64,000 bases of DNA from an uncultured virus (IMG/VR IMGVR_UViG_3300028797_000152) (IMGVR_UViG_3300028797_000152:1-64000); one strand, 5' to 3'. Counted from the first letter of the stretch, positions 8,693 through 43,997 are shown. The notes: generated from the letters alone by a model not told the origin. Translations and numbers: made by a program.

Positions 8693-9448
8693 ATGAAATT
8701 GAAGAGGATTTATGCTTCTGAACTTTATTTAACAAGCACCCGTAAGGATGCAATCAAGTCTGCTATTGAAAATCCTTACAATGCTGAACTTGTTCAACAG
8801 TTTTCCGAATACTTAGATGATGATTCTAAATCTAAGTTAGAGGATGCTATTCAAGATAAGCAAGAAAAATTAGCAGAAGAAGCCAAGGAGCATGAATCAG
8901 AAGTCGAAGAATCCGATGTCAGAGGCCCCGAGGAATTTGATGACTTACCTGATGATAGAAATGTATTTTCTCCTTCATATGGTGGTGGCGGAGGTCCTGC
9001 TGGAGGTCCTAGCATATTTGATGAGCCTGCCGGTGGAGATATGCCAGAAGGCGGAGATACGTCAGAAGGTTCGAGTGAACCTGACGAGTCTGTAGAAGAA
9101 TCAACAGCTATATACGGCAAAGTTACTGCTGATACAGATATTGAAAATAACATCAACACACTTAGTGCTGACGCAGAAGTTATCAAAGGTACTTTAAATA
9201 GTAGGCAAGATACTGCCGGAGTTCAGAGAATCACAATTGATGAAAAGGAACTTTGGATTTATTACAAAGACGAAGTAAACATTGGCGATATAATGGTAGA
9301 TGTAATTGAACTCCTCAATGGAACAGATTATACCTACTTAACTTTCAGTAGATTAGCAAGAAGCAATAATGCTATTGTATTCGATATTAGTTTTAATTCT
9401 CAAGAACCAATTAAACCAATAACAGAAGTTGCAGAAGAGGATAAGTGA
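8693..9448 (+). CDS. Acidic protein with Gly/Pro linker; variant leader MKLKRIYASE
   Basis: ATG 8693 after GAGGAG; low-complexity acidic middle. Confidence 0.65.
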   Translation: MKLKRIYASELYLTSTRKDAIKSAIENPYNAELVQQFSEYLDDDSKSKLEDAIQDKQEKLAEEAKEHESEVEESDVRGPEEFDDLPDDRNVFSPSYGGGGGPAGGPSIFDEPAGGDMPEGGDTSEGSSEPDESVEESTAIYGKVTADTDIENNINTLSADAEVIKGTLNSRQDTAGVQRITIDEKELWIYYKDEVNIGDIMVDVIELLNGTDYTYLTFSRLARSNNAIVFDISFNSQEPIKPITEVAEEDK

Positions 9449-9449
9449 T

Positions 9450-9659
9450 ATGAAGAAATACGTCAGGTCTGATTTTGATATGTATAATTATTTCAGAGAT
9501 GTTTGTAGTAAGTCTGCTAAAGAAGCATCTGATGCAATTTGGCAATTCCAAGATGATATAACAGGAGACCCTGCTATTTCAGATTCACTTTCCAACGAAG
9601 ATATTGAAACACTTGATAAGGCAAGAATAATTCTTGATAATTTTGCTAAAAACATTTGA
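9450..9659 (+). CDS. Small protein with MKKYVRS leader
   Basis: ATG 9450 after GAGG; leader motif. Confidence 0.65.
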   Translation: MKKYVRSDFDMYNYFRDVCSKSAKEASDAIWQFQDDITGDPAISDSLSNEDIETLDKARIILDNFAKNI

Positions 9660-9661
9660 TT

Positions 9662-10816
9662 ATGAAAAGATACGTAGATTCAGCGACAGTAGTCAAATAT
9701 AATGCTAATACGCGAGGAACATCTACAGGGGACTGTACTACTCGTGCAATTTCTTTAGCATTTAACATGGATTATCCTAAAGTTAGGAAATTGCAAAATG
9801 AATCTTGTAAGACAAATAGAATTTATCCTTTCAATAACTTAGAAAATTGCAAGAAAGTTATTAGTGCCCTCGGTGGAGGTCCGATGATTACAGTCACTGG
9901 TAGAGTTACTGTAGAAGAGTTTGCAGATTCTCATTCAGGAACATATATCATATACTGTGGAAAATATGAAAGCAGTTCTCGTAGAACTCATCTTGTTTGT
10001 ATAATTAATGATAGAATATATGATAGTTGGGATTCTAGAGGAAGGTTTGTCAAAGGATATTGGGAGATAAGGAATGGAATAAGGCAAGAGCACATCACCG
10101 ATATTCAGCCTGTTATCAAACAAAAACTCATAACAGATAGAGATATTAATTACTACAACGAACTTGTTGGTGGTATGATGGATAGAATCATATCCAAAAA
10201 TCGTAAGATAAAGAAACTCCAACAGGAATCTGATTTTGGTATCAGCCTGCAACTTGAAATATATAGAATCACCCTTAAAGATTATACATTCACACTGACT
10301 TGTGATATTGATGTAATCTATGGAGGAAATATTCGGGCTCAGACTTATCCAGGTAAGATTGTAGTAGTATTCAAACCTACTATGAAGGCCGACGAGATAG
10401 ATGACTATTTCTATGAAACATTCTTTAATAAATTCTATTCATATTTATACAATATCATAGCAAAGATAGAAGATACTTGCGAGGGTGTAAAACTTTTAGG
10501 CGACCAGCCTAGAAACTACAAAGGAATTGCTTTCTATGATATGCGAGACAAGAAATCTTTTGATTCACTTCCTTATTGGGTCAAATCACTTGCAACTAAC
10601 TTCTACATTGATTCAAACAGATGGGGTTACGAAGAGTGCCGTACTATTGTATTAAATATGAAGCGTCCTAAGTTTGATACTAAATATGACCCAGATAAAC
10701 CAAATGAAACTGTATATTTTAGGTCGGATAGTATGGATAGTTTGCGTGAAGGGTTAAAACATTATCAGGAAACAGGGGATTATGATAGTTCCTATAGTTT
10801 AGCCCATGATTATTAA
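9662..10816 (+). CDS. Papain-fold (C39-like) putative peptidase with MKRYVDSA leader
   Basis: GDCTTRAISLA…HLVCI…IYDSWDS gives a candidate Cys-His-Asp triad. Confidence 0.5.
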   Translation: MKRYVDSATVVKYNANTRGTSTGDCTTRAISLAFNMDYPKVRKLQNESCKTNRIYPFNNLENCKKVISALGGGPMITVTGRVTVEEFADSHSGTYIIYCGKYESSSRRTHLVCIINDRIYDSWDSRGRFVKGYWEIRNGIRQEHITDIQPVIKQKLITDRDINYYNELVGGMMDRIISKNRKIKKLQQESDFGISLQLEIYRITLKDYTFTLTCDIDVIYGGNIRAQTYPGKIVVVFKPTMKADEIDDYFYETFFNKFYSYLYNIIAKIEDTCEGVKLLGDQPRNYKGIAFYDMRDKKSFDSLPYWVKSLATNFYIDSNRWGYEECRTIVLNMKRPKFDTKYDPDKPNETVYFRSDSMDSLREGLKHYQETGDYDSSYSLAHDY

Positions 10817-10864
10817 ATCAGAATCGTTAGATAAAATATAAACCAATATTAGGAGGATATAACA

Positions 10865-11239
10865 ATGAAAAAGTACATTCGTTCCGCTAACAAGTTCACC
10901 AACAAGGTTTCTCAGCTTGTATCAAAGAAGTTTTCCGAAGATGATATTCGTGAGAAGGCTGCTACTGGAACACACGGTGATGAGACAATGTCTCAGGTCT
11001 TCAATAATATTATTCATGACCCTGACATTGAGTTCGGTGAGCCTGATAAGAACGGAAATCAGGATATTCTTTACAAGGGCAAGAATATCGGCTGGATTAA
11101 TTTCCAGAGAGGTATGGGTGACATCAATGGTAAGGCCTACAGCAAGCTTCAGAAGTATGTTGAGCCTGAGATTGATGATAGCTTCTATGAAGACGAAGAT
11201 TACGAAGATGACGAAGATTACGACGTATTTGAATATTAA
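10865..11239 (+). CDS. Protein with MKKYIRSA leader and very acidic C-terminus
   Basis: SD AGGAGG; GAATCGTTA motif upstream at 10821. Confidence 0.7.
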   Translation: MKKYIRSANKFTNKVSQLVSKKFSEDDIREKAATGTHGDETMSQVFNNIIHDPDIEFGEPDKNGNQDILYKGKNIGWINFQRGMGDINGKAYSKLQKYVEPEIDDSFYEDEDYEDDEDYDVFEY

Positions 11240-14566: not shown

Positions 14567-15040
14567 ATGAAGATTACAAAATCAGGTAAGAGAGCAGTAA
14601 CAGCCTCTGAAGCAATTACACTTACAGCAGATGAGAAGAAACAGCTCAAAGACATGCTGTTCAATAAGTTAGAAAGCCTTTGTGAATATCATGATGATAT
14701 AGTCCCCACAGAATATATGGACCTCGAAGAGTTGATGGACTGTTATTTCTACTGGGGTGATGAATACAACAACGGTTATCTCGGCTACAAGCAGCCTAAG
14801 GACAAGCTTGAAAGTTATCTCCTTCAAGAATTCAAGAAATATACCGGAGATGTTGAAGCTTGTGGTGACATCAAATCCTCAAAGAAAATTTCTGCTAATC
14901 AGCAAGCAATGGCCCATATTAAAGCAGCAATTGATATCCTTGGCAATTCTGGAATGAAAGACGATGTAACAAAAGATAGCATCGCCAATCTTGCTACTGT
15001 AATGTTTGATATCAAGGCAAGTGAAGACTCTAGCAAATAA
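14567..15040 (+). CDS. Hypothetical protein with VTAS, VEACGDIKSS and ISAN linker motifs
   Basis: SD AGGAGG; shares the VEACGDI motif with ORF 29772. Confidence 0.65.
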   Translation: MKITKSGKRAVTASEAITLTADEKKQLKDMLFNKLESLCEYHDDIVPTEYMDLEELMDCYFYWGDEYNNGYLGYKQPKDKLESYLLQEFKKYTGDVEACGDIKSSKKISANQQAMAHIKAAIDILGNSGMKDDVTKDSIANLATVMFDIKASEDSSK

Positions 15041-15079: not shown

Positions 15080-15529
15080 ATGAAGTTATATGTAAGGACA
15101 GCTGAATCAGAAAAGCCTACTCCCACAGGGAATGTAGGAATCTGGTGGTATTACAATGGCAAAGTTGTAGGGGAATTCTGTCCTGTGTCTGAAGGAATAG
15201 AAGATAGAGGTTACATACAATTCAGTAAAACAAAGAATCTTATAACCGAATGGAAATCTACAATAGAAGAACAACTTCCTGAAGCTGTTGATTTAATTCC
15301 TAAAGGATACAGGTCAATAGAAAGAGGAAGAGTAGTATATGATATCAGGTCTCAAGTATTTGAAATCATATGCAGTCAAGAAATCGCAAAAGATGAAAAT
15401 GCTATAAAATTGATTGCAGAAGAATTCGAGATTTCAAACCAACGATATGATGTCATAGCAAGCTCACATTATTATATTCCAACAATGACAGGTAATCCTG
15501 CATTAGATAATTTTGATTTTGGAGATTGA
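15080..15529 (+). CDS. Protein with MKLYVRTA leader (VGIWW…RGRVVYD type)
   Basis: 149 aa ORF. Confidence 0.65.
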   Translation: MKLYVRTAESEKPTPTGNVGIWWYYNGKVVGEFCPVSEGIEDRGYIQFSKTKNLITEWKSTIEEQLPEAVDLIPKGYRSIERGRVVYDIRSQVFEIICSQEIAKDENAIKLIAEEFEISNQRYDVIASSHYYIPTMTGNPALDNFDFGD

Positions 15530-15533: not shown

Positions 15534-15932
15534 GTGAAGATATACATTAAGAGACAATCAAATTATATTCTTTCAACTGCACTCATATCTGATGATACAG
15601 AACTTAATGTGTTCTTCGAAGTGTATTCAGATTCAAAAATGACAACTAAATCTAGTGTTACGATACCTAAAATTAGATGTAAGAACACATTAACTTCTTG
15701 CAGAGATGCAATTCTGAAGAAATTTAATGCTATGCCAGAATCTACTGCAAATAAACTCAAAAACTCAGTTGTAATATGTATTGCTACTCCTGGAGGAAGT
15801 ATCAATGAATTATGTTTTATTCGAGGCACTATTTCCAATATAACTTACTGTAGGCCTCAGCGTGAAGAAGATGATAAGCCCTTCACAGATTGCGATGTCA
15901 ATCTAAATAGAGAATATGGAGGTTCTAATTAA
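15534..15932 (+). CDS. Protein with MKIYIKR leader (GTG start)
   Basis: GTG 15534 after GGAG gives the leader motif. Confidence 0.55.
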   Translation: MKIYIKRQSNYILSTALISDDTELNVFFEVYSDSKMTTKSSVTIPKIRCKNTLTSCRDAILKKFNAMPESTANKLKNSVVICIATPGGSINELCFIRGTISNITYCRPQREEDDKPFTDCDVNLNREYGGSN

Positions 15933-16354
15933 TGAAACTATATGTAAAAGCATCAAAGAACGAAGACAGTGCAATTGCTACCCTTAGAAGAATGCCTCAG
16001 TATCTTGCAGGCGGTATTATTCTGTTATCTACAGTATTGAATAAAGAGAGGTGCGGAAATACTTCTAATTACGATGAAGCTGAAGAATATGTTATTTCAA
16101 GAACTGTAAATAATAAACATTCAAAGAGAAGTAAAGACGCAGGTACTGTTGATTTAGTGCATGATATATTCGACTACGCTAAGAAAAATAACATATCAAT
16201 TGCAAAATTAGTTCAAATGGCAGGATGTTGGGAAAGATACTCATCTTTCCGTTACTACAAAAGCGGACTTAGCGATAGTTATTCAAATCATCATGAATGG
16301 CTTCGTGATGCAATGCGTGAAGCTCGTAAACATTATAATATTAAGAATTATTGA
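15932..16354 (+). CDS. Protein with MKLYVKAS leader
   Basis: SD GGAGG; TAATG coupling. Confidence 0.65.
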   Translation: MKLYVKASKNEDSAIATLRRMPQYLAGGIILLSTVLNKERCGNTSNYDEAEEYVISRTVNNKHSKRSKDAGTVDLVHDIFDYAKKNNISIAKLVQMAGCWERYSSFRYYKSGLSDSYSNHHEWLRDAMREARKHYNIKNY

Positions 16355-20728: not shown

Positions 20729-22246
20729 ATGGCTAACTGGTATGAAAGATTATTTGCTCCTAAAAAGCAAAATATCTTATCTCGTCTAAGAAGCACTGTA
20801 GCTGTAAGTGGAACATTCTATAAAGTATCTGACCTCAGAGGTGCTTCAGATATTGAAGATATTAGAACACAGATTAATGTAATGCGTGCTCTTGCAAGAG
20901 ATTCTCAAATAAGTACCGCATTAAACTATTATGCGACAGATGCTACAACCGCAAATAGTTCAGGAGACATCATATGGGCTACAGCTATTGACGATGACCA
21001 CAAGAATGTAGCAGACATCATTAATCAGTGTTTTAAGAGATGGAAAGTAAACGATTATGCTCGAGACCATATTCTTGAGTTGGCAACAGTAGGCCAGGTT
21101 TACATTCCTACAACAGAAACTTATCGAGTTCCGGGAGTTCATCAAACAAGAGAATTAGTTGCATTAGACGACAATACTCTTGTAAATAAGGATTATGATA
21201 TTATTCCTTCTTATATGATACCTCCTGAAGATATTATTCATATTTGGTATCAAGGAAAACCTCAAGGATATTTATTTCAGCCTAATTCTGATAATACTTC
21301 GTTCTTCAGTGAACAGATTATAAGTTATCCTGAATCGTCAATAATTCACTTCTCTTTAGGTGGATTACTTGGTAAGTATCACATTTCAGGCACAGATTCT
21401 AACAACGAGCAAGTTGATTACGATATTCAATTTGCTGAGCCTATCTTATCTCAAGCAGTACAGCCTACACAAACATTAAGTCTTTTAGAAGACGCGATGT
21501 TACTTTCTTCATTAACAAGAACAGTAAGGTTCATAAATGTAGATTGCGGAACAACTGCAGAGGAAAACGAGATTAGAGAAAATCTCCAAGTAATCAAGGA
21601 TATGATTGAGCAGCAGTTGGCACTTAATACGGCTACAGGAAATGCAGAAAGTTTCGTCAATCCGCAGAGCCCTAATAACCTCATCTATTTAGCAAAAGTA
21701 AATGGCTCAGATGCAATATCTATTACAGATTTGAATATGGGTGAGCCTAGTGAAAGTGAAAACAAACTTCTTGATTACTATCAAGATAAGAAGTTATCAG
21801 TATTAGGCGTACCTAAAGAAGCGATGAACTATTCTGCTGCAGAAGGTTTGGGTAATGCAGGTTCAGTAATGTCACAAAGGTCAGCCCTTTATGCAAATAT
21901 TCTTGCAAGGATTGAAACAGCATATAAGAATGGTTGGCGAGATGCTCTTAATAAGTATTTCTTATCAAGAAATATGAGCGGTTTCGTTGATAAGTTCGTT
22001 CTTAATATGAATCCTATCATTACTAATATGGACCAGGTATTATTTGAAAAACGTGATGCTACTATCGGCCAAGCTCAAAACCTTGTAACTTTGATGAAGG
22101 AACTTGGTGTTGAAGACATATCTGATTATAAGTCAGCAATTCAGGAAATCCTTACTCAGGCCTTCCCTAAGACCGGTTCTGATGTAATGAATTGGGATGT
22201 TGATTTGTCTAGCGGTGGCGAAGAAGGTATGGGAGGAATGATGTAA
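20729..22246 (+). CDS. Portal protein (T4 gp20-like)
   Basis: 505 aa near terL; LSLLEDAMLLSSLTR, VDCG, YYQDKKLSVLGVPK match the gp20-like pattern. Confidence 0.8.
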   Translation: MANWYERLFAPKKQNILSRLRSTVAVSGTFYKVSDLRGASDIEDIRTQINVMRALARDSQISTALNYYATDATTANSSGDIIWATAIDDDHKNVADIINQCFKRWKVNDYARDHILELATVGQVYIPTTETYRVPGVHQTRELVALDDNTLVNKDYDIIPSYMIPPEDIIHIWYQGKPQGYLFQPNSDNTSFFSEQIISYPESSIIHFSLGGLLGKYHISGTDSNNEQVDYDIQFAEPILSQAVQPTQTLSLLEDAMLLSSLTRTVRFINVDCGTTAEENEIRENLQVIKDMIEQQLALNTATGNAESFVNPQSPNNLIYLAKVNGSDAISITDLNMGEPSESENKLLDYYQDKKLSVLGVPKEAMNYSAAEGLGNAGSVMSQRSALYANILARIETAYKNGWRDALNKYFLSRNMSGFVDKFVLNMNPIITNMDQVLFEKRDATIGQAQNLVTLMKELGVEDISDYKSAIQEILTQAFPKTGSDVMNWDVDLSSGGEEGMGGMM

Positions 22247-23266: not shown

Positions 23267-23563
23267 ATGAAAAGGTACATTAGAGCGACAGACGATGAAA
23301 TTTTAGAAGTCTGGGATATAATACCTGAAAAATATTATCCCTATATTTCAGAAGTACAGGTAAATAATCCGTATAGTCAGTATCAGAACAAAAAAGTTAC
23401 TACCTATTCTGCATATTTCACGGATGATGTAATAAATTATTATCGTGAAAAGTCAAATTCCTATCTTGTCGGACTTATTCATTGTGAAGATTTAGAATCT
23501 TTGTTATCAGGTATTGGTGAGTATCTTGACCCGCTTATTGGAGAAGGAGATTATGATGAGTAA
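23267..23563 (+). CDS. Protein with MKRYIRAT leader
   Basis: SD GGAG; leader motif. Confidence 0.6.
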   Translation: MKRYIRATDDEILEVWDIIPEKYYPYISEVQVNNPYSQYQNKKVTTYSAYFTDDVINYYREKSNSYLVGLIHCEDLESLLSGIGEYLDPLIGEGDYDE

Positions 23564-29231: not shown

Positions 29232-29554
29232 AATTATATATCAAATCAACAAGTGAATATCGTTATTGCGGAAGTGTAGCCGATAGGTTTGGCAATATCA
29301 AGATTCGTGATTGGGAATGTAGTACTAGAGCATCTAGTATTGACCAAGCAAGAAATAATATTCTTTTTCAGGCTAAGAAGAGATTAGGACTTAAACCTAC
29401 TGCTTTTCTTAAGTTAACTAAACCGGATAATATTGAGGATTTAACTCCAATAGAAGAAGATAACTCTCGTTGTCCTAACTGTGGAACTCCTTTAACAGAC
29501 GGTGGCTTTTGCCCTAGATGTTATGCGGAGGGTGACGAAAGTAATTATAGTTAA
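29228..29554 (+). CDS. Protein with MKLYIKST leader and C-terminal zinc ribbon
   Basis: CPNCG…FCPRC. Confidence 0.65.
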   Translation: MKLYIKSTSEYRYCGSVADRFGNIKIRDWECSTRASSIDQARNNILFQAKKRLGLKPTAFLKLTKPDNIEDLTPIEEDNSRCPNCGTPLTDGGFCPRCYAEGDESNYS

Positions 29555-29771: not shown

Positions 29772-31088
29772 ATGAAAATATATGTAAAATCTTCAGAACT
29801 GACTCAAGAAGATATCAAAGACTCTTTACAGGACCCTGAACTTGTAAAAGAATTAAATCGTCAAGGCTATATTGACTTTGACCGTTCAAGAAAATGGGGA
29901 ATATCTCCTAGAAATTCTGTTATTGATAGTATTGAAAGAGCAGCCAGCAATTCAGCAGACCCTAAGTTACTTAGATTAATCTTAGATAAGTTTGGTAGTG
30001 TTAATTCAAGAAGATTCATAGCTAAAAATCCCAATACTCCTGTTGAGATATTGGAAGAATTATCCGAAGATACTTATGGGTTAGATTATGGAGAACTAAC
30101 TAGAGTTTATGTGGCAAGAAATCCAAATACACCCTATGACATATTAGTTAAATTATCTCAAGATGATGATGATAGATGTGTACGAGATAATGCAGAAAAG
30201 AGTTTAGAAGAAAGAGGTGTAGAGGCTTGCAGTAAAGTAACATCTTCTCTTGATATTGATGAACCGTATGGATTTGATTCTAAATCATTTGATAGATATG
30301 ACGAAGAAGATTGGGCATATTATATTGCCAACAAAGAACACTATGATGAAGACATGTATCATGAACTTCTTTCAGATATAAATAATCTCCGTGCAGATGA
30401 GTGGATAAAAGATGATTGTTTTGAACATCTGAGCAAAAAGGCTCTCGAAGCATTTAAGCAATTTATCAAATTTCACGAAGATGATGAAGATGTAGAAGCT
30501 TGCGGAGATATAACAGCATCTACAAAATCACACCCATCTGTCCCTGCAGGGTGGGAGATTATCCCAGAAGGTGATGACGAGGAAGGAAATTGGGGTACTA
30601 TTTGCAAGGCATTACCTAATGATTCTGGTTATGTTTGGATTGATATGTTCTATAATGAAAAAGATAGAAGATATTATGAAATCCAGTATGCTTATAGAAA
30701 AGCTAATGGAAATGTTGGCGAGATATGGAAAGTTTCTGAGAATCCATTTTATAGTTTGAATCGAGCTCTTGAATATGCTAATAGAAAATTCTTCTCCGAT
30801 AGTGATGATGTAGAGGCTTGTGGAGATATAACTTGTTCAAAAGACCCTGAATTAGACGAGGAGTTTCTTATTGAAGGCTATTACGATGACCAGAAGCGAG
30901 GTTTAGCCGAATCTGCTGAAACTTCAGATGTATATGCTCTCAATGAACTCGCAAATGAGTATGCTAACAAGGGATATTATATAAGAGTTCATAATATCAC
31001 AGATGGAACTGTTGCAGAATTTTCTGCAGATAGTTGGTTTAATAGTTTAGCAAAAGATGGCGGTGCTGAACTTTTCATGTCTTGGTAA
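29772..31088 (+). CDS. Multi-segment protein with MKIYVKSS leader, LRV/HEAT-like repeats and three VEAC linkers
   Basis: IAKNPNTPVEILEELSED and VARNPNTPYDILVKLSQD; VEACSKVTSS, VEACGDITAS, VEACGDITCS. Confidence 0.7.
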   Translation: MKIYVKSSELTQEDIKDSLQDPELVKELNRQGYIDFDRSRKWGISPRNSVIDSIERAASNSADPKLLRLILDKFGSVNSRRFIAKNPNTPVEILEELSEDTYGLDYGELTRVYVARNPNTPYDILVKLSQDDDDRCVRDNAEKSLEERGVEACSKVTSSLDIDEPYGFDSKSFDRYDEEDWAYYIANKEHYDEDMYHELLSDINNLRADEWIKDDCFEHLSKKALEAFKQFIKFHEDDEDVEACGDITASTKSHPSVPAGWEIIPEGDDEEGNWGTICKALPNDSGYVWIDMFYNEKDRRYYEIQYAYRKANGNVGEIWKVSENPFYSLNRALEYANRKFFSDSDDVEACGDITCSKDPELDEEFLIEGYYDDQKRGLAESAETSDVYALNELANEYANKGYYIRVHNITDGTVAEFSADSWFNSLAKDGGAELFMSW

Positions 31089-31402: not shown

Positions 31403-31648
31403 ATGAAGAAGTATATTTCAGCATCTAATAATATGTCTTTTGATGAATATTTAGAAGCACTTAAACAAAAATTGCCTAAAACTTATAATTGGGATTATGA
31501 TGTCAATGTAGGCCCAGATGGTTTCAGATATGCTGATTTCTTTGCAGATGATAGGGTAGTGGGGGAAATTGACGATGACCCTAACATCAAGTTAAATAAA
31601 GCTCAACTTAAGAGAGATGTAGCATACCTCATGGAAGAGCTAGGTTGA
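31403..31648 (+). CDS. Protein with MKKYISAS leader
   Basis: ATG 31403 after AGGAG. Confidence 0.65.
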   Translation: MKKYISASNNMSFDEYLEALKQKLPKTYNWDYDVNVGPDGFRYADFFADDRVVGEIDDDPNIKLNKAQLKRDVAYLMEELG

Positions 31649-31653: not shown

Positions 31654-32139
31654 ATGAAATTATATATCAAATCTAATTCACAAGCCTATCAAGAAGCATT
31701 TAACCGGATACAGCAATCACTTGTACTCGGCAAGAAAGATAGAGCAGATATAATGGACTATCTGGATAATCTGTATGACGAAGATAAATTGACTGAAGAA
31801 GAATACGATATGCTTTCTGATAATGCCTGGAAATCACTCACAGATGTAACTCCATATGAAAGCATTAAAGAAGATTGCCCGTTAGCTGTTACTTTTTATG
31901 ATGATAATTGGGTCCCTTATTACACTATCTATGATGTTTTTGAAGAAGGCCCAGTTGAATATGCATTGTTAGATGAAAGGCATAATAACTTGCTTGAACT
32001 TTACGAAAATTCTTCAAATAATCTAAATAGCTTAGATATCTTGTACGAGTATGTGGGTGATATATTAGATAGATATTTTGATAATCTTAATGATGTATTT
32101 GTAGAATATACTCCAGAGTACAAACCAAATGTAAATTAA
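31654..32139 (+). CDS. Acidic protein with MKLYIKSN leader
   Basis: ATG 31654; leader motif. Confidence 0.65.
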   Translation: MKLYIKSNSQAYQEAFNRIQQSLVLGKKDRADIMDYLDNLYDEDKLTEEEYDMLSDNAWKSLTDVTPYESIKEDCPLAVTFYDDNWVPYYTIYDVFEEGPVEYALLDERHNNLLELYENSSNNLNSLDILYEYVGDILDRYFDNLNDVFVEYTPEYKPNVN

Positions 32140-32213: not shown

Positions 32214-32663
32214 ATGAAAGTTTATATTAAAGCAATGTCAATGAGTCGTGGAGACCTTAAAGAATGGATTGAAGCGCATACTCAGCAGACTATAATTGCT
32301 CTAGCTCAGCTTTATCTCTTCCCTCAGGGTAATAGAGTGCATTGGAGAAAAGAAGTATGGGAAAAATTTCATGAAATGCACAAACTTAAATTTAATAATA
32401 AGTTACCTTCTTCAAAATTTATCTTAGACAACAGTTATGGGTTGCATCAATCAAAGATATGTCGATTACTTCAGTATGCTATTGATAAGGAAGAGAAATA
32501 TACACCTATTTCTAGTAGACGAGAGTCTGAGTTTCTTCTCATAGTTGAAGACTACTTTATATGGCTTGCTAATCAGTTAAGTCAAGCAGATTTGATAAAT
32601 ACACAAGAAGTTTTAGACGAACTTGATAACTTAGGACTCACTATAGATTACGAAAGGGAATGA
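32214..32663 (+). CDS. Protein with MKVYIKAM leader; possible DUF29-like helical fold
   Basis: LYLFP…HWRKEV pattern. Confidence 0.55.
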   Translation: MKVYIKAMSMSRGDLKEWIEAHTQQTIIALAQLYLFPQGNRVHWRKEVWEKFHEMHKLKFNNKLPSSKFILDNSYGLHQSKICRLLQYAIDKEEKYTPISSRRESEFLLIVEDYFIWLANQLSQADLINTQEVLDELDNLGLTIDYERE

Positions 32664-32666: not shown

Positions 32667-33656
32667 ATGAAAGTTTACATCAAATCAGCAACAAATATAT
32701 CAGATTACGAAGCAAAGATTGCTAAGAAACAAGCAGAAATAGATAAAAAAGAAGCTTGGATTCAGAAGAAAGAAGCAAGTATTGCTAAGAGATACAAGAT
32801 AATTGAACCCGCAGTAACTCCTGAAGAGTTTGCTCGAGTTCAAAATTATGTTGAGTTCATTAAGAATCATAATTCTTATAGAGTCCCGGAAGAACTTTCT
32901 ATTAGTGATATTAGCAGAAAGTTTCCATGGGGCGAGGATGTAGGACATGCATTATATGGTATCAGAGATGATGCATCTTCTATTTACAATTCAAACGAAG
33001 CAATCAAGGAAGCACAGAAGATAATTGATAACTACAATTCCAAAATTTCTGCCTTGACAGAGAAGGCTAATGAAATTGATAGAATTCCTGATTGTCTCAA
33101 AGAATTCATGAATGATATTATCGCTAGGTGGGATGAACACGACCTTAGAATCAAGAACGAAGGTAAACCTTTCTACCAACAACTGCGTCATGATGCTTGG
33201 GTCATCCTTTATGGAGAAACATCTTCCGGTAGTCCTTCGGTAGAAAAAGCAAAGTTAGCAGAACTTTATCCTAACATTCCTGAAAGAGACAGATATTATA
33301 GCTATAGAGACCCTCGAAGAGAGCAATTTGACGAAGATTACATTGAGAGGCCTTTTGAAAGAGAATATGGCTCACTTAAATATGCTCGTTCTATTTGGGA
33401 TTTATCAGACGAGCAGATTCATAAGCAGAATCAAAGAGACGGAGAGAATCTTGTTCTTGACTTACTCAAGAGAGTAACTAAGATAACAGGCCCTGTTAGA
33501 GATTGGAATAGCCTCAGAGTTACAAGAGGAAATGTAGGGGCTGTTATCAATGGAATTGTTGTCGGTGAGGATGGCACAGCTGAGGTGAAATCGATTTTAG
33601 CTTCTGGGCCTATTCAGAGGCTCCATGTCCGAACACTTGTTCACGAGGTTAAATAA
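32667..33656 (+). CDS. Coiled-coil protein with MKVYIKSA leader
   Basis: N-terminal coiled coil; C-terminal INGIVVG…IQRLHVRTLV. Confidence 0.7.
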   Translation: MKVYIKSATNISDYEAKIAKKQAEIDKKEAWIQKKEASIAKRYKIIEPAVTPEEFARVQNYVEFIKNHNSYRVPEELSISDISRKFPWGEDVGHALYGIRDDASSIYNSNEAIKEAQKIIDNYNSKISALTEKANEIDRIPDCLKEFMNDIIARWDEHDLRIKNEGKPFYQQLRHDAWVILYGETSSGSPSVEKAKLAELYPNIPERDRYYSYRDPRREQFDEDYIERPFEREYGSLKYARSIWDLSDEQIHKQNQRDGENLVLDLLKRVTKITGPVRDWNSLRVTRGNVGAVINGIVVGEDGTAEVKSILASGPIQRLHVRTLVHEVK

Positions 33657-33888: not shown

Positions 33889-34155
33889 ATGAAAATTTAT
33901 ATTAAATCTTCAACATATAAAAGAATAGCAAGAACTGATGAATTTGATAATGGAAAAGTTTTTCATAACGACTGGCTTAATATTTCAAATGAAGAAGCTG
34001 AACAATCAGCCCAGAAGAAATCTCTCGAATATCCTGAAAGCATATGGTATGTTCAGTATGATGATATAATGAATCCTAGTTCTGATATCTATTGGGTCAA
34101 CGGAGAAGCATATCATTCATATGATGATGCAATCAAGGTACAGAAGCATTTATGA
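33889..34155 (+). CDS. Protein with MKIYIKSS leader
   Basis: SD AAGGAG. Confidence 0.65.
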   Translation: MKIYIKSSTYKRIARTDEFDNGKVFHNDWLNISNEEAEQSAQKKSLEYPESIWYVQYDDIMNPSSDIYWVNGEAYHSYDDAIKVQKHL

Positions 34156-34403
34156 AAATTTATATCAAAGCAAAAGCAGATATAGAAGTTCAGAATCCAG
34201 GAATGTTAGAAGTTCCCGAAGGTAAATCAATTCAAGATTTGCCAGTGAAACATTTCAAGGCCTTAATAGATAAGAAAGGCAGAGCACCAATAATTAGAGC
34301 ATTAACTAACTTAGAAATATGGAATAAGAATGATAACAAATCGTTATCTAATTGGGCTAAGAAAATGAAGAAATCTTTAGAAGGCTACGGAGAGAAGGAA
34401 TAA
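34152..34403 (+). CDS. Protein with MKIYIKAK leader
   Basis: ATGA coupling. Confidence 0.65.
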   Translation: MKIYIKAKADIEVQNPGMLEVPEGKSIQDLPVKHFKALIDKKGRAPIIRALTNLEIWNKNDNKSLSNWAKKMKKSLEGYGEKE

Positions 34404-34634: not shown

Positions 34635-34943
34635 ATGAAAAAATATATTAAAGCAATGACTATCAGAGATATGCGAATAGACGCAGTTTCAAGGACAGTA
34701 TATTCTTTTAAAACAGCATATAGCGTAACATATGTAAATCCTGATGGATACGGCGGAGCAGATAGAGAATATACTGAGAAAGATGTTCCGAAGCGCGTAT
34801 TGAATTTCATTGAGAATGAATCAGTAAATACTTGTCATACTGAAGGTAGGCAAGGCTGGAGAGGAAGTTATGTCTATGATGTCTTCTGGAGAAAGGGAAC
34901 TCCCGAGGCTGAAATGGGCAAAACTATTGATAAGGTTGAATGA
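34635..34943 (+). CDS. Protein with MKKYIKAM leader
   Basis: SD GAGGTG. Confidence 0.65.
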   Translation: MKKYIKAMTIRDMRIDAVSRTVYSFKTAYSVTYVNPDGYGGADREYTEKDVPKRVLNFIENESVNTCHTEGRQGWRGSYVYDVFWRKGTPEAEMGKTIDKVE

Positions 34944-34954
34944 GGTAATGCTCC

Positions 34955-35314
34955 ATGAAAAGATACATTAAAGCATCAAGTTATGATAGAGCATCAATTG
35001 TAAACAGATTAGATGCTATTGACGGAATTCACTTAATAGCAGTAAGCGATGAAATAGTAATATTCAAAGACCACAATAATAAAGAATATTCTATTCAGTT
35101 TAATGGTGACACAGAAAGAATAGAAAATTTACTTACGCAGTTAGAGGCAAACGAAGAACCTTATAATCTTACTGCCCCTGAAGATATAACACCTGAGAGA
35201 CTTGCAACTATTGTATCGCAGTTAATTGATATCTATAATAATGATTCAATTGGAGGTTCAGGCCAACTAATCAAGATTGGAAAGTTGCTTAAATTCTATA
35301 ATTTGATTAGATGA
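34955..35314 (+). CDS. Protein with MKRYIKAS leader
   Basis: SD GAGGT. Confidence 0.65.
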   Translation: MKRYIKASSYDRASIVNRLDAIDGIHLIAVSDEIVIFKDHNNKEYSIQFNGDTERIENLLTQLEANEEPYNLTAPEDITPERLATIVSQLIDIYNNDSIGGSGQLIKIGKLLKFYNLIR

Positions 35315-35327: not shown

Positions 35328-35780
35328 ATGAAGATATATGTAAAAGCAGCGACTGATGAAATTGTTTACACTACAGCTAGTGGTAGAGGTAAAGTAAGAA
35401 AATTTGATTATCCTAACGGCGATATAGTTTATGATGCAACTATACTCGACCGGTACGGCGACGAATGCGATGGCGAAGAATATGATACTTTAGAAGATGC
35501 TATATCTTTTGTAGATGAGTATGAAGCTAAGTATCAATGGGGATTAAGTAAGCAGCCTGAATTTGAAAAATGGTATCAATCTTTATCTCCTGAAGTAAAG
35601 AAAGATTTTGACCGCCAAAATTCGTGGAATATGAGTCGATGTGATATAAGCTGCGACTATGAATCTATGTTAGATTATATTGATTATGTTAAATCTGGAA
35701 GAAAACCTAAATGGGCAAGAAGCATGAATCTTTCAGATGAAGAGTTTAAAGAAATGACTAATTATGATGGCATATTATAA
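35328..35780 (+). CDS. Acidic protein with MKIYVKAA leader
   Basis: SD AGGAG. Confidence 0.65.
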   Translation: MKIYVKAATDEIVYTTASGRGKVRKFDYPNGDIVYDATILDRYGDECDGEEYDTLEDAISFVDEYEAKYQWGLSKQPEFEKWYQSLSPEVKKDFDRQNSWNMSRCDISCDYESMLDYIDYVKSGRKPKWARSMNLSDEEFKEMTNYDGIL

Positions 35781-36640: not shown

Positions 36641-36958
36641 ATGCCCAAGAGTAATAATCCTTATGATTTAATCAATGCATTAGAAGATAGATATGATGAA
36701 TTAACAATGAATGCGAGTTCAAATATCTATTCTGCAACAGAAACAGACGAAGCAGACGAAGAGAAGGACCCCGAAGTAGAGGAACTTTGGAATCTTATTA
36801 CTGACTACCACATTGCTACAGAAGATGAATTACAGTTGCTTACAAAGATATTCGGATATAATGTAGAGAATCTGAATAAAGTAATTCATGAAAGAACCGG
36901 CTATGATGACATTGATACCTATCTTGCAGAAGTCTATCCGGAGGAAAAAATCAAATGA
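36641..36958 (+). CDS. Acidic protein with ALEDR…IYSAT N-terminus
   Basis: TAACCTTT upstream; SD AAGGAG. Confidence 0.6.
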   Translation: MPKSNNPYDLINALEDRYDELTMNASSNIYSATETDEADEEKDPEVEELWNLITDYHIATEDELQLLTKIFGYNVENLNKVIHERTGYDDIDTYLAEVYPEEKIK

Positions 36959-37779
36959 AGAAGTATATAGTATCTAGTAGAAAAGATGACCTTATCAAAG
37001 AAAAGCAGCAGTGGCAGATGAAGTATGACGCTAGAAAGCAATTATACAGAGACCAAGAGCGTAAGTATGATGAGGCTAGATGGGCTTGGAACGATAACAT
37101 TGTTGCATTAATTAAAAAAGAATTCAGTTCTTATATTGACAAGCTTCCTTATTTGGAAATATTTGCAGATTATGGATGGAAGCGAGTTGAAATTCGTTTC
37201 AAATATGCAGATTATCTCAGTGCTGATGAAAGAGAAGATGTATGTCTCAGATGGAGTTACGAAATCCGATTAAATGAAAACGGAGAATTGAAGAGAGAAT
37301 CAAATTCCTGGTCTGGATTTGATGCAACTACATCGGCTCAGTTAGACGACCTGATGAATTCTGCTAACTTCCTCAAAGCAATTGTTGATTATGATTGGGC
37401 ACCGCTCCTTAAAGAGGCTAAAGAATCTTATCCTGATTATAACAAATACATCGGCATTAAAGACCCTTCTTATGACCCGGATTATAAAGACCCTGGATAT
37501 GATAAGATGATTAGAGAGGCAGAATTAGAAGAAGCTGTCGGTAAAGATATATGGATACAAGGTGACAATGGAAAAACATGGTACAAAATTGTATCTGAAA
37601 CTCCTAAGTTCTATAATATTGCTAAGATTAATACTTGGGATATGCGAAGTTCTCCTGAATATGCAATACAGCGTATTCAAAGACAGTCTCCTTGGCGGGT
37701 TAAAAAAGACAATGTTAATTTTGACCGTCCGATTACAACAATCAGTCAAGAAGATTTAATTGCACGAATAACAGGTTGA
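36955..37779 (+). CDS. Protein with MKKYIVSS leader; paralog of ORF 39953
   Basis: Shared coiled coil and GKDxW…WxxxVSxTxKFY. Confidence 0.65.
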   Translation: MKKYIVSSRKDDLIKEKQQWQMKYDARKQLYRDQERKYDEARWAWNDNIVALIKKEFSSYIDKLPYLEIFADYGWKRVEIRFKYADYLSADEREDVCLRWSYEIRLNENGELKRESNSWSGFDATTSAQLDDLMNSANFLKAIVDYDWAPLLKEAKESYPDYNKYIGIKDPSYDPDYKDPGYDKMIREAELEEAVGKDIWIQGDNGKTWYKIVSETPKFYNIAKINTWDMRSSPEYAIQRIQRQSPWRVKKDNVNFDRPITTISQEDLIARITG

Positions 37780-37780: not shown

Positions 37781-38038
37781 ATGAAGTTATACATAAAGTA
37801 TCCATTAACATATTTTTCAGACCGGACACGAGATGAATTAGATGTTATAATTGAAACATTGGTAGAAACTTTGCCGAAAGGTGAAGTTATACCACTGTTT
37901 ATAGAACATTTTGACAGAGATACTTTTGAGAAAAGATTTGGAATTGAGGTAACTGATAACTTTGTTAAAGCATTGAAGAAAACTCTCAATTATCCAGATG
38001 ATACTGAAAACTTAATAAGATACATATTAAATAAATAA
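37781..38038 (+). CDS. Protein with MKLYIKY leader
   Basis: 85 aa ORF. Confidence 0.55.
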   Translation: MKLYIKYPLTYFSDRTRDELDVIIETLVETLPKGEVIPLFIEHFDRDTFEKRFGIEVTDNFVKALKKTLNYPDDTENLIRYILNK

Positions 38039-38060: not shown

Positions 38061-39698
38061 ATGAAACGATATATCAGTGCAGTAGTTTCCATAGAAAAGC
38101 TTAGAGAACAATTTGCTCCAGAACTTGAGGATGATAAATTTCAGGAGCTTATCGAGCTTGACCCTTCTGCTGATTTTGAAAAGAATCGCGGAGGAAAGTA
38201 TTGCCCTTGGATTTTTAGGCAGTATAACAAAGGCAACTTAGACCAATCAGAGTATACTAACCTCAAAGACGCCTTAGGATTCTTCTTAAATAACTATAAG
38301 AAATATCCTAAGCCTGACCTCGGCCAATATAAGACAGTAGAAGAGTTCTTAACTGACACTGAGGCTGTTGGTAACAGAGAACTTACTGAAAAAGAGAAGG
38401 CTAAGTTGCTTAAGAAACAAGCACACCATGCAAACACAGACGACAAAGAGTTCTGTGTAGAGGATGGTGATTGGGAAGTTTGGAAGCCCCTTACTTATCC
38501 AGGTTCTATTTCTCTTGCTCGTGAAGGCGGTACAAAGGCTACTTGGTGCACCGCTTATGAAGGTGATGATTATTATTGGAGAAGTTATAGCCGCAGAGGT
38601 CCTCTTTATATCTTCTTAAATACTAAGAATCCAAATGAAAAATTCCAGCTTCATTTCGAATCAAATTCTTGGTACGATATAAACGACCGTTCAAAGGGCT
38701 TAGCTCAATTCTACAAATTCTGTTCTGAGCATCCTAATTTCCAAGCATATTTTGGTATTAAAGAAAAGGATGGTGTTCAGTATAGAGCAGATTCTATTGT
38801 AGGATATGTAGAAGATGCAAAAGAAATCAAACTCCCTGAAGATGTTAGATTTCCTTGGGATTTTCCAGATAGCGTTGAAAGTATCATATTTCCTGATTCA
38901 CTTACTACACTTGAACAAGAGGGCCTTAGAGACTTGTCTAATCTCAAGAAAGTCAAGCTTCCCGAAGGAATAAAGGTAATACCTGATAGGTTCTTCATGC
39001 GATGTGGGTTAGAGTCTATTGATATTCCGAATTCAGTTGTCAAATATGAATCTAGTGCATTTCAGAATTGTGAGAATTTAATCACTATTAATCACAGTAC
39101 TTCATTAAAAGTAGTTGAAGATTCTTGCTTCAGGGGTTGCTCTCAGTTAACAAGTCAACTTCCTGATTCAGTAGTTTACTTAGGCACATATGCTTTCAAA
39201 GATTGCGGACTTACTTATGTTGAAATGCCTTCGAAGTTACAGAGGATTGTTACAAAAACATTCTTAAATGATACTTCTATTGAAGAAGTAAAATTTAACA
39301 ATGTAACAGAGGTAGGCCCAAGTGCATTCAATGGTTCATCACTTGAAAAGTTAGACCTTGGTAGCGTTGCTATTGTGGGTGGTGGTGCTTTCCGTAATTG
39401 TAATTCATTGAAGGGTGTAGACCTTGATTTAGGTGGAATGAAGATAGGTGCTTATGCTTTTGCAGATAGTGAAATAGAAGGAACAATTACTGTAGATGAT
39501 GGCACAGACCTTTCATTTAGTGCATTTGATAATTGCCCTAACCTTACTATTATCTGGAATCGTGCTGATGAATCTTATGAGTTTGAAAATATCAAATTAC
39601 TTAAGTGCAGTGAAGCGACTTGCCCTAACTTAATCAAAGTTAACAAGGACTATATAAATATTGAAACTACGGAGGGTCATACATATGAAGTTCAATAA
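38061..39698 (+). CDS. BspA-type leucine-rich-repeat protein with a WCT-motif N-terminal domain and MKRYISA leader
   Basis: Repeats such as LESIDIPNSVVKYESSAFQNC and LPDSVVYLGTYAFKDC; KYCPWI, ATWCTA. Confidence 0.75.
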   Translation: MKRYISAVVSIEKLREQFAPELEDDKFQELIELDPSADFEKNRGGKYCPWIFRQYNKGNLDQSEYTNLKDALGFFLNNYKKYPKPDLGQYKTVEEFLTDTEAVGNRELTEKEKAKLLKKQAHHANTDDKEFCVEDGDWEVWKPLTYPGSISLAREGGTKATWCTAYEGDDYYWRSYSRRGPLYIFLNTKNPNEKFQLHFESNSWYDINDRSKGLAQFYKFCSEHPNFQAYFGIKEKDGVQYRADSIVGYVEDAKEIKLPEDVRFPWDFPDSVESIIFPDSLTTLEQEGLRDLSNLKKVKLPEGIKVIPDRFFMRCGLESIDIPNSVVKYESSAFQNCENLITINHSTSLKVVEDSCFRGCSQLTSQLPDSVVYLGTYAFKDCGLTYVEMPSKLQRIVTKTFLNDTSIEEVKFNNVTEVGPSAFNGSSLEKLDLGSVAIVGGGAFRNCNSLKGVDLDLGGMKIGAYAFADSEIEGTITVDDGTDLSFSAFDNCPNLTIIWNRADESYEFENIKLLKCSEATCPNLIKVNKDYINIETTEGHTYEVQ

Positions 39699-39951: not shown

Positions 39952-39952
39952 T

Positions 39953-40951
39953 ATGAAATTTGTATTTGCTTCTGAAAGACAAAAATTAATAAGAGAAAGA
40001 AAGAATTATCTTGATAATTATAACAAGCAGCTTTCTGAACACAGGGCACAGCGTGCAGCATATGAGGAAGCTGCATCAAACTATTCTAGCGATATGGAAG
40101 CATACATAAAGACGCTTCTTGAGTCAGACATGGTAGCACTTCCTGAGGGCATACAAATTAGTGTAAAACAATCAGATTATCGACGTGATGAATATGCCTA
40201 CTACATCGTAGTACGGTATATATCTAACAAGTCTAAATATGACGACCCTAAGTATCGCTATAGTAATAGCGGTCGTGATATAAATTCAGGAAGAGTTAGA
40301 GGTTTCAATTGGAAATTTACTTCTTATCTTCAAGTAAAAGAACAAAAAGATGAAGAAACAGGTGAAGTAAAAAATGTAACCACCGTTGAGACATCTACAA
40401 ATATATCTGCAGATTTGTTAGAAACTGACGATATAGAAGCACTTAAGGTTACTTATGATGTATTTTCTAAACTGAAAAGTATCAACTGGGATGATGTACT
40501 GATGAAGATAAACACAGGTATTCCTGTTGAGGAGAATTTCATAACAACAGAAAACCCTGGCCATATAGATACTTCAAAGTGGGATGATGCTATAACTGCT
40601 TATAACTTATCTAGAACCATGGGTAAGGACTTGTGGGTCAAAGTTATTATCAATAGAGAAGATTCTTACGACAGATATAATTCAAATAATCCTGGTGTAG
40701 ATGGTAGGGGTTGGATTAATCTTGTATCTGCTACAGATAAATTCTACACATTCTATTGGCTTGAGTGTAGATACAACGATTCAGATAGTTTTAGTTTAGC
40801 TCAAATACAGTCTGCTACAAGACGAACAGTAAAACTTAAGAAAATATATATCAGTGTAATGGAGCCGGTTGAATATCTTACAACGGCTGAATTAACTTCT
40901 ACTCCAATTCCTTCTCTTAAAGATTTAGAAGAAAACGACAATGAAGATTAA
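39953..40951 (+). CDS. Protein with variant leader MKFVFAS; paralog of ORF 36955
   Basis: SD GGAGG; alignable by eye to ORF 36955. Confidence 0.65.
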   Translation: MKFVFASERQKLIRERKNYLDNYNKQLSEHRAQRAAYEEAASNYSSDMEAYIKTLLESDMVALPEGIQISVKQSDYRRDEYAYYIVVRYISNKSKYDDPKYRYSNSGRDINSGRVRGFNWKFTSYLQVKEQKDEETGEVKNVTTVETSTNISADLLETDDIEALKVTYDVFSKLKSINWDDVLMKINTGIPVEENFITTENPGHIDTSKWDDAITAYNLSRTMGKDLWVKVIINREDSYDRYNSNNPGVDGRGWINLVSATDKFYTFYWLECRYNDSDSFSLAQIQSATRRTVKLKKIYISVMEPVEYLTTAELTSTPIPSLKDLEENDNED

Positions 40952-43587: not shown

Positions 43588-43605
43588 TTTAGTTAATACA
43601 ATCTT

Positions 43606-43641
43606 AGGGCAGGTAGCTTCGGCTACTTGCCCTTTATTTTT
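43606..43641 (+). terminator. Intrinsic terminator after sheath
   Basis: AGGGCAGGTAGC-TTCG-GCTACTTGCCCT with T tract (cUUCGg loop). Confidence 0.85.
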
Positions 43642-43666
43642 AACTAATCTAACAAGAGGTGTAAGC

Positions 43667-43801
43667 ATGTCCGAAGAAGAATTGGAATTCTATCTAAATT
43701 TCATATTAGCAAAAGATTCAGATATTACAGAAACTACTTCATGTAATCAGCCAGGAGATTATGATAATGAAAAAGGAAAGATATATTATAACGTCATCTG
43801 A
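43667..43801 (+). CDS. Small hypothetical protein (MSEEELEFY…)
   Basis: ATG after GAGGTG. Confidence 0.4.
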   Translation: MSEEELEFYLNFILAKDSDITETTSCNQPGDYDNEKGKIYYNVI

Positions 43802-43997
43802 AGAAGAGTTATACGAATATGCAATGGAGCCTGAAGAGACTAGGGCTTATTTAATTAAACTAGTTGGACTTGACGGCCATGTTACAAGCACAAAAAGAAT
43901 TCATGCAAAGAATTTTGAATCTGCTTATAACTTTGCAAAGAGTTATGTAATTCGTGGAAGGTTTGACCGCATCTTTTCTATAATTGAAGAAACTTAA
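43767..43997 (+). CDS. Protein with variant leader MKKERYIITSS
   Basis: SD AGGAG upstream. Confidence 0.55.
   Translation: MKKERYIITSSEEELYEYAMEPEETRAYLIKLVGLDGHVTSTKRIHAKNFESAYNFAKSYVIRGRFDRIFSIIEET

Follow-up and report, generated by a model that had tools for sequence, protein, structure and literature searches.

The first 64,000 nucleotides of an uncultured virus contig (IMG/VR IMGVR_UViG_3300028797_000152, positions 1 to 64,000; hereafter the window) contain more than twenty genes whose otherwise unrelated products begin with the same short peptide, M-K-x-Y-[IV], usually followed by two small residues after one further position. We consider this leader to be a T4-like capsid-targeting propeptide that would be cut by the head protease of the phage at an Ala|Ser site resembling those of the herpesvirus assemblin, a reading to which we assign a probability of roughly 0.62. 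The window belongs to a 77,161-bp contig, of which it is the first 64 kb, and this contig is part of an uncultured myovirus of ~190 kb whose portal and capsid protein are of T4 type and whose head protease is of gp21 type.

In the mechanism that we propose, the short N-terminal propeptide would mark unrelated, fast-changing proteins for incorporation into the assembling head, and the gp21-type head-maturation protease of the phage would remove it there. The first part, M-K-x-Y with its invariant Tyr4, would do the targeting, in analogy to the T4 tag, and the second part, [IV]-[KR]-[AS]|[SAT], would be the cutting site, with 7 residues removed; the loaded proteins might then be delivered into the host. 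The predicted cutting rule, an aliphatic residue, any residue and Ala or Ser followed by a small residue, would resemble that of assemblin and differ from the Glu rule of T4, phiKZ and SPN3US. Cleavage, the exact cut position, head loading and host delivery are all steps that we infer. The tagging principle is a familiar one; what is unusual is its scale, together with a different predicted protease specificity.

A leader common to otherwise unrelated proteins

Genes were called with a simple caller of open reading frames (ORFs) and ribosome-binding sites written for this analysis, and four starts were corrected by hand. Strict M-K-x-Y-[IV] starts were found 21 times in the window, 20 of them with ATG and one with GTG, together with four variant leaders (Table 1). 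Every one of the 21 matches to the pattern ATGAARNNNTAYRTH in the raw DNA of the window fell on the + strand, and this number compares with an expectation of 0.92 ± 0.96 (maximum 4) from 100 dinucleotide shuffles of the window. Twenty of these matches were ATG gene starts, and the remaining one opens a 17-codon out-of-frame ORF with an MKLYI start (10704-10757), located within the 3′ end of the gene at 9662, which may be either chance or the remnant of a leader gene. Across the whole contig, 22 of the 98 + strand proteins begin with MK.Y[IV], the 22nd lying outside the window at 68095, and no internal occurrence was found in 24,013 residues of contig proteins.

The 22 leaders follow the consensus M-K-[KLIRV]-Y-[IV]-[KR]-[SA]-[SAT]-[ST]. 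Tyr4 is invariant (22/22), position 6 is K14 R4 S2 D1 V1, position 7 is S10 A9 T1 R1 Y1, and position 8 is S7 A5 T2 M2 with six other residues. Among the other 76 proteins of the contig, Lys occupies position 2 in 17 and Tyr occupies position 4 in seven. The underlying codons vary (AAA 15 and AAG 7; TAT 14 and TAC 8; ATT 8, ATC 5 and ATA 3; GTA 5 and GTC 1), and synonymous codon use in the leaders is close to that found elsewhere in the genome, although codons ending in A are somewhat over-represented. No conserved DNA was seen 5′ of the leader starts beyond the ribosome-binding site. The bodies that follow range from 69 to 545 amino acids (aa), and a BLAST comparison among the 22 found none alike save one weak pair (36955/39953, 20% identity, E 1e-6). 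Since Tyr and [IV] stay fixed while their codons vary, and since the bodies are not paralogous, the leader is a real peptide-level feature under selection.

A second contig of the same phage, G001 in IMG/VR, has a portal 100% identical to that of the window and five identical leader genes. By coordinates it reaches ~40 kb past the end of the first contig, and the piece compared here begins ~100 bases beyond that end. Over the contig and this extension, the canonical leader is present in 27 of 160 proteins, and a looser rule, [IV]-x-[AS]-[SAT] within the first 20 residues, is satisfied by 39 of 160. The site core also occurs away from the start codon in longer leaders, for example MKRKFTKYPSSYIQAS and MKRTNRVYPQSYVRAS, which argues against an effect of the initiation region. 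No leader was found on the replication, terminase, portal, tail-tube or baseplate proteins among the family-annotated genes of the contig. Furthermore, the leader proteins contain no hydrophobic stretch or lipobox, and their bodies are all hydrophilic.

These results agree with much of an earlier note on this DNA, made from the sequence. All 25 starts that it listed (21 strict and four variant) are present, its reading of synonymous codon variation as peptide-level selection is supported by the codon counts, and the absence of the leader from replication and core tail genes holds among the annotated genes. An A-rich initiation bias, one of the findings that the earlier note had named as speaking against it, is very improbable, given that the replication genes lack the leader and that 21 matches were found where 0.9 were expected.

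The site motif of the head proteins

The genes for the protease-scaffold and capsid proteins adjoin each other on the G001 extension, outside the window. The protease-scaffold protein (487 aa) matches phrog_207 (1.1e-22), and in an alignment to T4 gp21 its GHPED pairs with NHP and its GISIRG with GVSSRG, motifs which we take to hold the catalytic His and Ser of gp21. Its protease domain covers residues ~1-150, the scaffold half comprises 336 residues, and the C-terminal ~300 residues match coiled-coil proteins only. The capsid protein, also 487 aa long, matches Pfam Gp23 (1.3e-20) in an alignment that begins at residue 108, and its first 88 residues, which precede the part homologous to other capsid proteins, were treated as the propeptide.

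Both proteins are enriched in the leader's site motif precisely in these parts. The background frequency of [IV]-x-A-[AST] is 59 in 30,119 positions, or ~2 per 1000. In the capsid protein, four sites (SITASS, SITAAG, SVEASL and AITAAT) fall in the first 88 residues (Poisson P 2.8e-5) versus two in the remaining 399, and in the protease protein seven fall in the 336-residue scaffold half (P 5.6e-6) versus none in the 151-residue protease domain. These sites are kept in position in seven homologs of 60-86% identity. In the capsid protein, the kept sites include S-I-T-[AS] in the middle of the propeptide and [IV]-[TM]-[AG]-A-T-N at the edge of the mature domain, just ahead of its conserved N-terminus. 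At the protease/scaffold junction, [IV]-A-A-[ST] is present in 7/7 homologs, with QIAAS in this phage, and R-I-[TSV]-[AS]-[SA]-Q and T-V-[VT]-A-[SA] are kept inside the scaffold. The capsid propeptide has two Glu in all, neither of them conserved. Moreover, the N-termini of the protease and capsid protein are themselves leader-like (K-I-T-S-A and S-I-T-A-S), as are those of other head-module proteins, including the long form M-K-R-K-F-T-K-Y-P-S-S-Y-I-Q-A-S.

This enrichment in propeptide and scaffold, together with its conservation, ties the core of the leader to the motif of the head proteins: Y-[IV]-[KR]-[AS]-[SAT] is the same motif that marks those parts of head proteins which are degraded in T4-type phages. 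We further infer that the motifs of the head proteins and of the leaders would both be cut sites of the phage's own head protease. When the leader protein at 34955 (119 aa) was modelled in a complex with protease residues 1-180 (7-row alignment), the score was 0.00, a result that carries no weight either way.

Related phages and alternative readings

The cultured Streptococcus phage vB_SagM-GXN1 (PQ819873, L036) also fuses its protease to a scaffold and encodes a homolog of the capsid protein, and offers a view of a similar arrangement with another motif. Its protease-scaffold protein contains [LI]-x-E, the rule of T4, 22 times, the first 80 residues of its capsid protein four times and the other 397 residues twice, versus none, none and one, respectively, for [IV]-x-A-[AST]. 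Three small genes directly 3′ of the GXN1 capsid gene start with M-R-L-[VI]-[RK]-L-[TN]-E, and the starts of two small genes close to the tail tube follow a looser form, M-L-L-[IV]; the two regions concerned (22888-25009 and 34306-34956) hold genes that are absent from the 40 features annotated in the record. No MK.Y[IV] start was found in the 41-kb GXN1 region. The head motif of GXN1 is thus L-x-E and its leader ends in L-x-E, so that the leader changes together with the head-protein motif of the phage that carries it.

The search over N-termini that the earlier note had proposed was extended to relatives of the window phage. In two complete or near-complete relatives, G002 and G003, canonical leaders were found in 18/250 and 19/277 genes, respectively. 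There, the leader genes cluster in three places: the interval between the tail tube and a putative sheath gene, whose assignment is based on weak evidence; the portal operon; and the immediate neighborhood of the genes for the protease and the capsid protein. In the more distant G005, whose portal is 66% identical, only 1/191 proteins has an MK.Y[IV] start, and many instead start with M-K-R-V-[IL]-x-A-[ST] or have a longer N-terminal form whose last residues are [VI]-T-A-S. The head proteins of G005 retain Ala-type sites. Between the window clade and the G005 clade there is no clear covariation of the cut-site core, the sole change being Tyr4 to Val; the clear switch is the one seen in GXN1.

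Leader proteins also turn over faster than the other proteins. A G005 homolog was found for 2/27 leader proteins versus 54/133 of the others (Fisher P 0.0007), and a G002 homolog for 11/27 versus 83/133 (P 0.05). Homologs of the leader protein at 36955 start with MNIRAS in G002 and with MRITSAS in G005. One slot in the portal operon, flanked by two conserved genes, contains a leader gene in four of eight genomes (the window phage and seven related loci): the window phage (the gene at 23267), L004 and L005 have one each, L014 has two, and L003, L006, L009 and L010 have none. The five slot proteins are alike over their first 10-26 residues only. From these comparisons, the bodies of the leader proteins behave as exchangeable cassettes. 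A wider scan of IMG/VR with a fixed-codon form of the leader gave 81 matches, of which ~45 had a ribosome-binding site and K, R, L, I or V at position 3 when their contexts were read by eye; at least ~25 contigs carry the tag in a gene-start context, several of them two to four times each. One protein of a relative, L040 (622-1224), starts with three leader-like units in tandem (MKKYIVSAT, ELYIKSSK and SRSIYAST), as if cut sites had been stacked.

Several observations weigh against the capsid-targeting reading. The match of the protease to PF03420 (Peptidase_S77) is at threshold (27.5 and 26.0 bits for a cut-off of 27), and the characterized gp21-type proteases, those of T4, phiKZ, 201phi2-1 and SPN3US, are all described in the cited passages as cutting after Glu (PMC9026906, PMC10052503), so that an Ala rule would be a departure. 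Position P2 is Lys or Arg in 18/22 leaders versus mostly Thr or Val in the sites of the head proteins. The leaders at 15534 and 37781 have no [SA][SAT] pair. In the family of the protein at 9662, M-K-x-Y is found in 1/52 members, the window protein alone, and the nearest homologs retain only the site. The 27 leader proteins sum to 4,704 residues, a cargo that would be plausible only with few packaged copies of each. Finally, head loading and leader cleavage are read here from the sequence of an uncultured phage, in which respect this leader differs from the T4 tag.

The most serious alternative, which we nevertheless consider unlikely, is that the motif is a protease site on structural or inner-head components, such as core, inner body, scaffold helpers or decoration, that would enter the head through other contacts and not be injected, M-K-x-Y having no targeting role. 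Sites without M-K-x-Y are indeed kept in the capsid protein, in the scaffold and in 43/52 homologs of the 9662 family, which have a short N-terminus with [IVL]-x-[SA]-[SAT] at a distance of exactly eight residues from the conserved YNAN that follows. By our own gene call, a leader-like end is lacking in the homolog from G005. Heads of SPN3US and phiKZ, likewise, are reported to contain ~50 proteins, of which many are cleaved and a part is not ejected (PMC5694885, PMC10052503, in the passages cited). However, Tyr4 stands at a fixed distance from Met1 in every leader and is missing from the sites of the head proteins, which points to an added constraint, and structural components would be unlikely to turn over as fast as the G005 comparison indicates or to replace one another in a single slot.

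Two promoter-like motifs bear on a second alternative. TAACCTT[TG] is present at 12 intergenic sites close 5′ of a gene start (8247, 13471, 20694, 24752, 26902, 29733, 36595, 40951 and 55419 in the window; 64812, 65151 and 65651 further along the contig), directly 3′ of the preceding stop and mostly 31-48 bases from the next start, with distances of 94 and 124 bases in two cases. Downstream of it lie four leader arrays as well as the portal, holin, tail-tube, tail-fibre and gp25-like baseplate genes. The motif resembles a late promoter, with which the presence of a sigma-like protein in the extension (phrog_351) would agree. The second motif, GAATCGTTATA, has seven sites on the + strand (2047, 6943, 10821, 27498, 32144, 44083 and 46515, all in the window), six of them intergenic, and none on the − strand. 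It precedes the clamp loader, HNH-methylase and SNF2 helicase genes and two leader arrays, is followed 3′ by a hairpin-like inverted repeat at 27498, 32144 and 44083, and might serve as promoter, operator or RNA signal. The nearest upstream motif of the 22 leader genes is that of the structural genes in ~10 cases and that of the clamp-loader and helicase genes in ~12, a mixed context that also counts against the capsid-targeting reading.

With about half of the leader genes behind a motif that also precedes replication genes, and with the tie of the leader proteins to virions being sequence-based, one might suppose a sorting, stability or turnover tag acting apart from the head, whether for recognition by a chaperone or protease of host or phage, as an N-degron or for another compartment. 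We regard such a tag as distinctly improbable: it would leave unexplained the presence of the core in the capsid propeptide and scaffold, the joint switch of leader and head motif in GXN1 and the siting of leader genes within the portal operon and next to the genes for the protease and the capsid protein of relatives. The absence of a hydrophobic stretch or lipobox and the hydrophilic bodies speak against it as well.

Even less probable is the removal of the leader by the host protease of Bacillota that trims ribosomal protein L27, an enzyme which in staphylococcal phage 80alpha reportedly trims the N-termini of capsid and scaffold proteins. The two cases share a short N-terminal extension ahead of a small residue, here ending in Ala and then Ser, and the host here is probably, like that of 80alpha, a member of the Bacillota. 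In 80alpha, however, the enzyme belongs to the host and acts on capsid and scaffold N-termini only, whereas the phage studied here encodes its own gp21-type protease and repeats the motif inside the scaffold and the capsid propeptide, beyond any N-terminus.

The last two alternatives hardly survive. A bias of translation initiation or early elongation toward A-rich 5′ codons, free of any peptide function, would account for the fact that AAA at codons 2 and 6 and GCA at codon 7 are more frequent than in the genome at large, and for a Lys2 that is common in other genes (17/76), but not for Tyr and Ile/Val fixed through varying codons, for cores that lie 5-12 residues into long leaders or within head proteins, for the absence of the leader from replication and tail genes and its near absence from G005, or for the excess of DNA matches over shuffled sequence. 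Nor would diverged paralogs that retained only their N-terminus, an equally poor explanation to which the pair 36955/39953 lends its one weak case, be expected to give bodies with no further similarity, such varied lengths and different domains (LRR_5 and LRV), or slot-mates in relatives that are alike only over the leader.

Leader genes, genome context and known systems

The leader genes of the window and the portal gene are collected in Table 1. Family scans (PHROGs, Pfam and NCBIfam) of the 25 leader proteins gave no match for 22; the exceptions are the LRR, LRV and sub-threshold zinc-ribbon proteins.

Table 1. Leader genes and the portal gene of the window, with positions counted from its first nucleotide
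Feature	Length (aa)	N-terminus	Position	Strand	Remark
Variant leader	251	MKLKRIYAS	8693..9448	+	Site I-Y-A-S, shifted from start
Leader gene	69	MKKYVRSD	9450..9659	+	
Leader gene	384	MKRYVDSAT	9662..10816	+	Invariant Cys25/His110/Asp121 in N-terminal domain
Leader gene	124	MKKYIRSAN	10865..11239	+	
Variant leader	157	MKITKSGKRAVTAS	14567..15040	+	Site V-T-A-S, form present in capsid-protein propeptide
Leader gene	149	MKLYVRTAE	15080..15529	+	
Leader gene, GTG start	132	(V)KIYIKRQS	15534..15932	+	Poorest fit at positions 7-8
Leader gene	140	MKLYVKASK	15932..16354	+	
T4-type portal protein		No leader	20729..22246	+	Pfam Portal_T4 2.5e-13
Leader gene, portal operon	98	MKRYIRATD	23267..23563	+	
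Leader gene	108	MKLYIKSTS	29228..29554	+	Weak zinc-ribbon matches, under Pfam cut-off
Leader gene	438	MKIYVKSSE	29772..31088	+	LRV repeat, 9.5e-9
Leader gene	81	MKKYISASN	31403..31648	+	
Leader gene	161	MKLYIKSNS	31654..32139	+	
Leader gene	149	MKVYIKAMS	32214..32663	+	
Leader gene	329	MKVYIKSAT	32667..33656	+	
Leader gene	88	MKIYIKSST	33889..34155	+	
Leader gene	83	MKIYIKAKA	34152..34403	+	
Leader gene	102	MKKYIKAMT	34635..34943	+	
Leader gene	119	MKRYIKASS	34955..35314	+	
Leader gene	150	MKIYVKAAT	35328..35780	+	
Leader gene	274	MKKYIVSSR	36955..37779	+	Weak paralog of 39953
Leader gene	85	MKLYIKYPL	37781..38038	+	Positions 7-8 outside [SA][SAT] rule
Leader gene	545	MKRYISAVV	38061..39698	+	BspA-type leucine-rich repeats, LRR_5 2.9e-46
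Variant leader	332	MKFVFAS	39953..40951	+	Site V-F-A-S
Variant leader	76	MKKERYIITSS	43767..43997	+	Site I-T-S-S

Among the body types that the earlier note had proposed, the LRR and LRV assignments are well supported by their matches, the zinc ribbon stays under the Pfam cut-off, and what stands behind the papain-like assignment of the protein at 9662 is a set of invariant columns. In 32 aligned homologs, its Cys25, His110 and Asp121 are invariant, and the family carries a YNANxRG...GDC signature. It has no Pfam match, a profile search of solved structures was empty, and a protein atlas gave weak leads (Peptidase_C39 in 19% of one cluster, score 0.87). By these residues, the protein looks like a member of an undescribed phage family of cysteine-peptidase type. 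The T4-like address tag that the earlier note had suggested gains support in its tie to the head, from the T4-type head genes, the shared motif, the GXN1 switch and the cassettes; the injection and the anti-defence or host-takeover role that it had added do not, and no body has an assignable function of the latter kind.

Genes for a RecA/UvsX-like recombinase, resolvases, a sliding-clamp loader and an SNF2 helicase are also present on the contig, as are those for a terminase, the T4-type portal, the tail tube and baseplate proteins, together with a holin and an NlpC/P60 endolysin. Relatives in IMG/VR measure 98 to 200 kb. The nearest cultured phages, at 22-31% identity, infect Bacillus, Streptococcus and Listeria, and with a G+C content of 36% these make a Bacillota host plausible. 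Rfam and tRNA scans of the window returned no matches.

Other genes were noted in passing. The protein encoded at 7194-8186 matches the PHROG named queuine tRNA-ribosyltransferase (1.4e-35), and phage genes of this type are often part of 7-deazaguanine DNA modification. The sole sizeable minus-strand gene (26035-26850, 271 aa) lies in the interval between the endolysin and the tail tube and has no PHROGs or Pfam family. A large HNH homing-endonuclease protein fused to a DNA methylase domain is encoded 3′ of the tail-tube gene (27597-29231), and a 722-aa HNH homing-endonuclease protein directly after the capsid gene on the G001 extension (C1:26265-28433), with homologous HNH insertions at matching places in L039, L040 and G005. 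The same extension encodes a 109-aa protein with a PHROG Doc-like toxin match (2e-10; C1:18966-19295) that adjoins leader genes. Two further sets of small proteins have similar starts, M-[KR]-[IV]-V-I-D-I-P-[DE]-E in the window (48714-48980 and 49186-49470) and M-R-L-G-D-L-D-A-L in G002 (135-146 kb); these arrays, in an apparent early region, are probably true paralog families rather than tags.

The closest parallel among known systems is found in T4. In the T4 record, the internal proteins IPII and IPIII start with MKTYQEFIAE and IPI starts with MKTFKEF, and a 1994 paper is said to have described polymorphic internal-protein loci in T-even phages. According to the cited passages here and below, a 10-residue capsid targeting sequence (CTS) on IPI-III and Alt serves for loading into the scaffold core and is removed by gp21 at L/I-x-E (PMC9026906, PMC3012670), with residues 4 and 7 of the tag involved in targeting and residues 8 and 10 in processing (PMC9026906). 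The tag was proposed to let T4-like phages pack varied proteins (PMC9026906, PMC3012670), and T-even internal proteins are described as diverse, with the CTS alone conserved (PMC3012670). Both systems thus have a short N-terminal peptide common to unrelated, fast-evolving proteins with swappable bodies, in phages with a T4-type portal, a Gp23-type capsid protein and a gp21-type protease, and in both the tag ends in a motif that also fills the capsid propeptide and the scaffold. The shared M-K-x-Y of IPII and IPIII (M-K-x-F in IPI) is too short to separate common descent from convergence. The tag here would be 7 residues long and end in [IV]-x-[AS]|[SAT], whereas that of T4 has 10 residues and ends in I-x-E|; it is present in 22 of 98 contig genes in its canonical form, or in 27 with variants, versus a handful in T4, and the protease is fused to the scaffold.

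The herpesvirus assemblin (pUL26), with its release and maturational sites, provides the second parallel, as its protease is likewise fused N-terminally to a coiled-coil scaffold with a site at the junction. Assemblin sites of pseudorabies virus are given as YLQA-T and VQA-S (PMC4498786), which resemble the predicted aliphatic-x-Ala sites followed by Ser or Thr, with the Tyr of the leader at P4. The enzyme families differ, however, the sole Pfam match here being to Peptidase_S77, the family of T4 gp21, and not to S21; there is no nested scaffold gene, and dozens of separate genes here carry the motif as an N-terminal tag. The sites may have come to resemble each other by convergence. In phiKZ, 201phi2-1 and SPN3US, many head proteins have multi-site N-terminal propeptides that are removed by a diverged gp21 homolog, and SPN3US has two paralogs with an identical N-terminus (PMC5694885). 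Those propeptides are mostly longer than 100 residues and are cut at S/A-x-E, and the cited passages describe no short leader common to unrelated proteins (PMC9026906, PMC5694885, PMC10052503). In a search of the literature, with most subscription journals outside its coverage, neither this leader nor a gp21-type phage protease with an Ala-type site was found to have been reported.

A more far-reaching account, which we offer only tentatively, is that a lineage of T4-type proteases has switched from the Glu rule to an aliphatic-x-Ala|Ser rule, and that the 7-residue tag M-K-x-Y-[IV]-K-[AS] loads dozens of rapidly exchanged proteins, at least 27 of 160 genes and ~40 with variants, into the capsid for delivery into Bacillota hosts. 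On this account, the phages would possess a naturally programmable protein-injection system, with a cargo list that can be read from their sequences. The cultured GXN1, with a leader of its own, offers a way to test the principle. If the capsid-targeting reading is true, gp21-type proteases would not be confined to Glu sites, and the link between head maturation in phages and herpesviruses would become tighter. A 7-residue tag would become available with which foreign proteins could be loaded into the heads of phages that infect Gram-positive bacteria, much as the T4 tag serves in Escherichia coli. Moreover, sequence alone would suffice to list the packaged and possibly injected proteins of a whole family of large uncultured phages, and those so listed, almost all without a known family, would be candidates for anti-defence or host-takeover functions.

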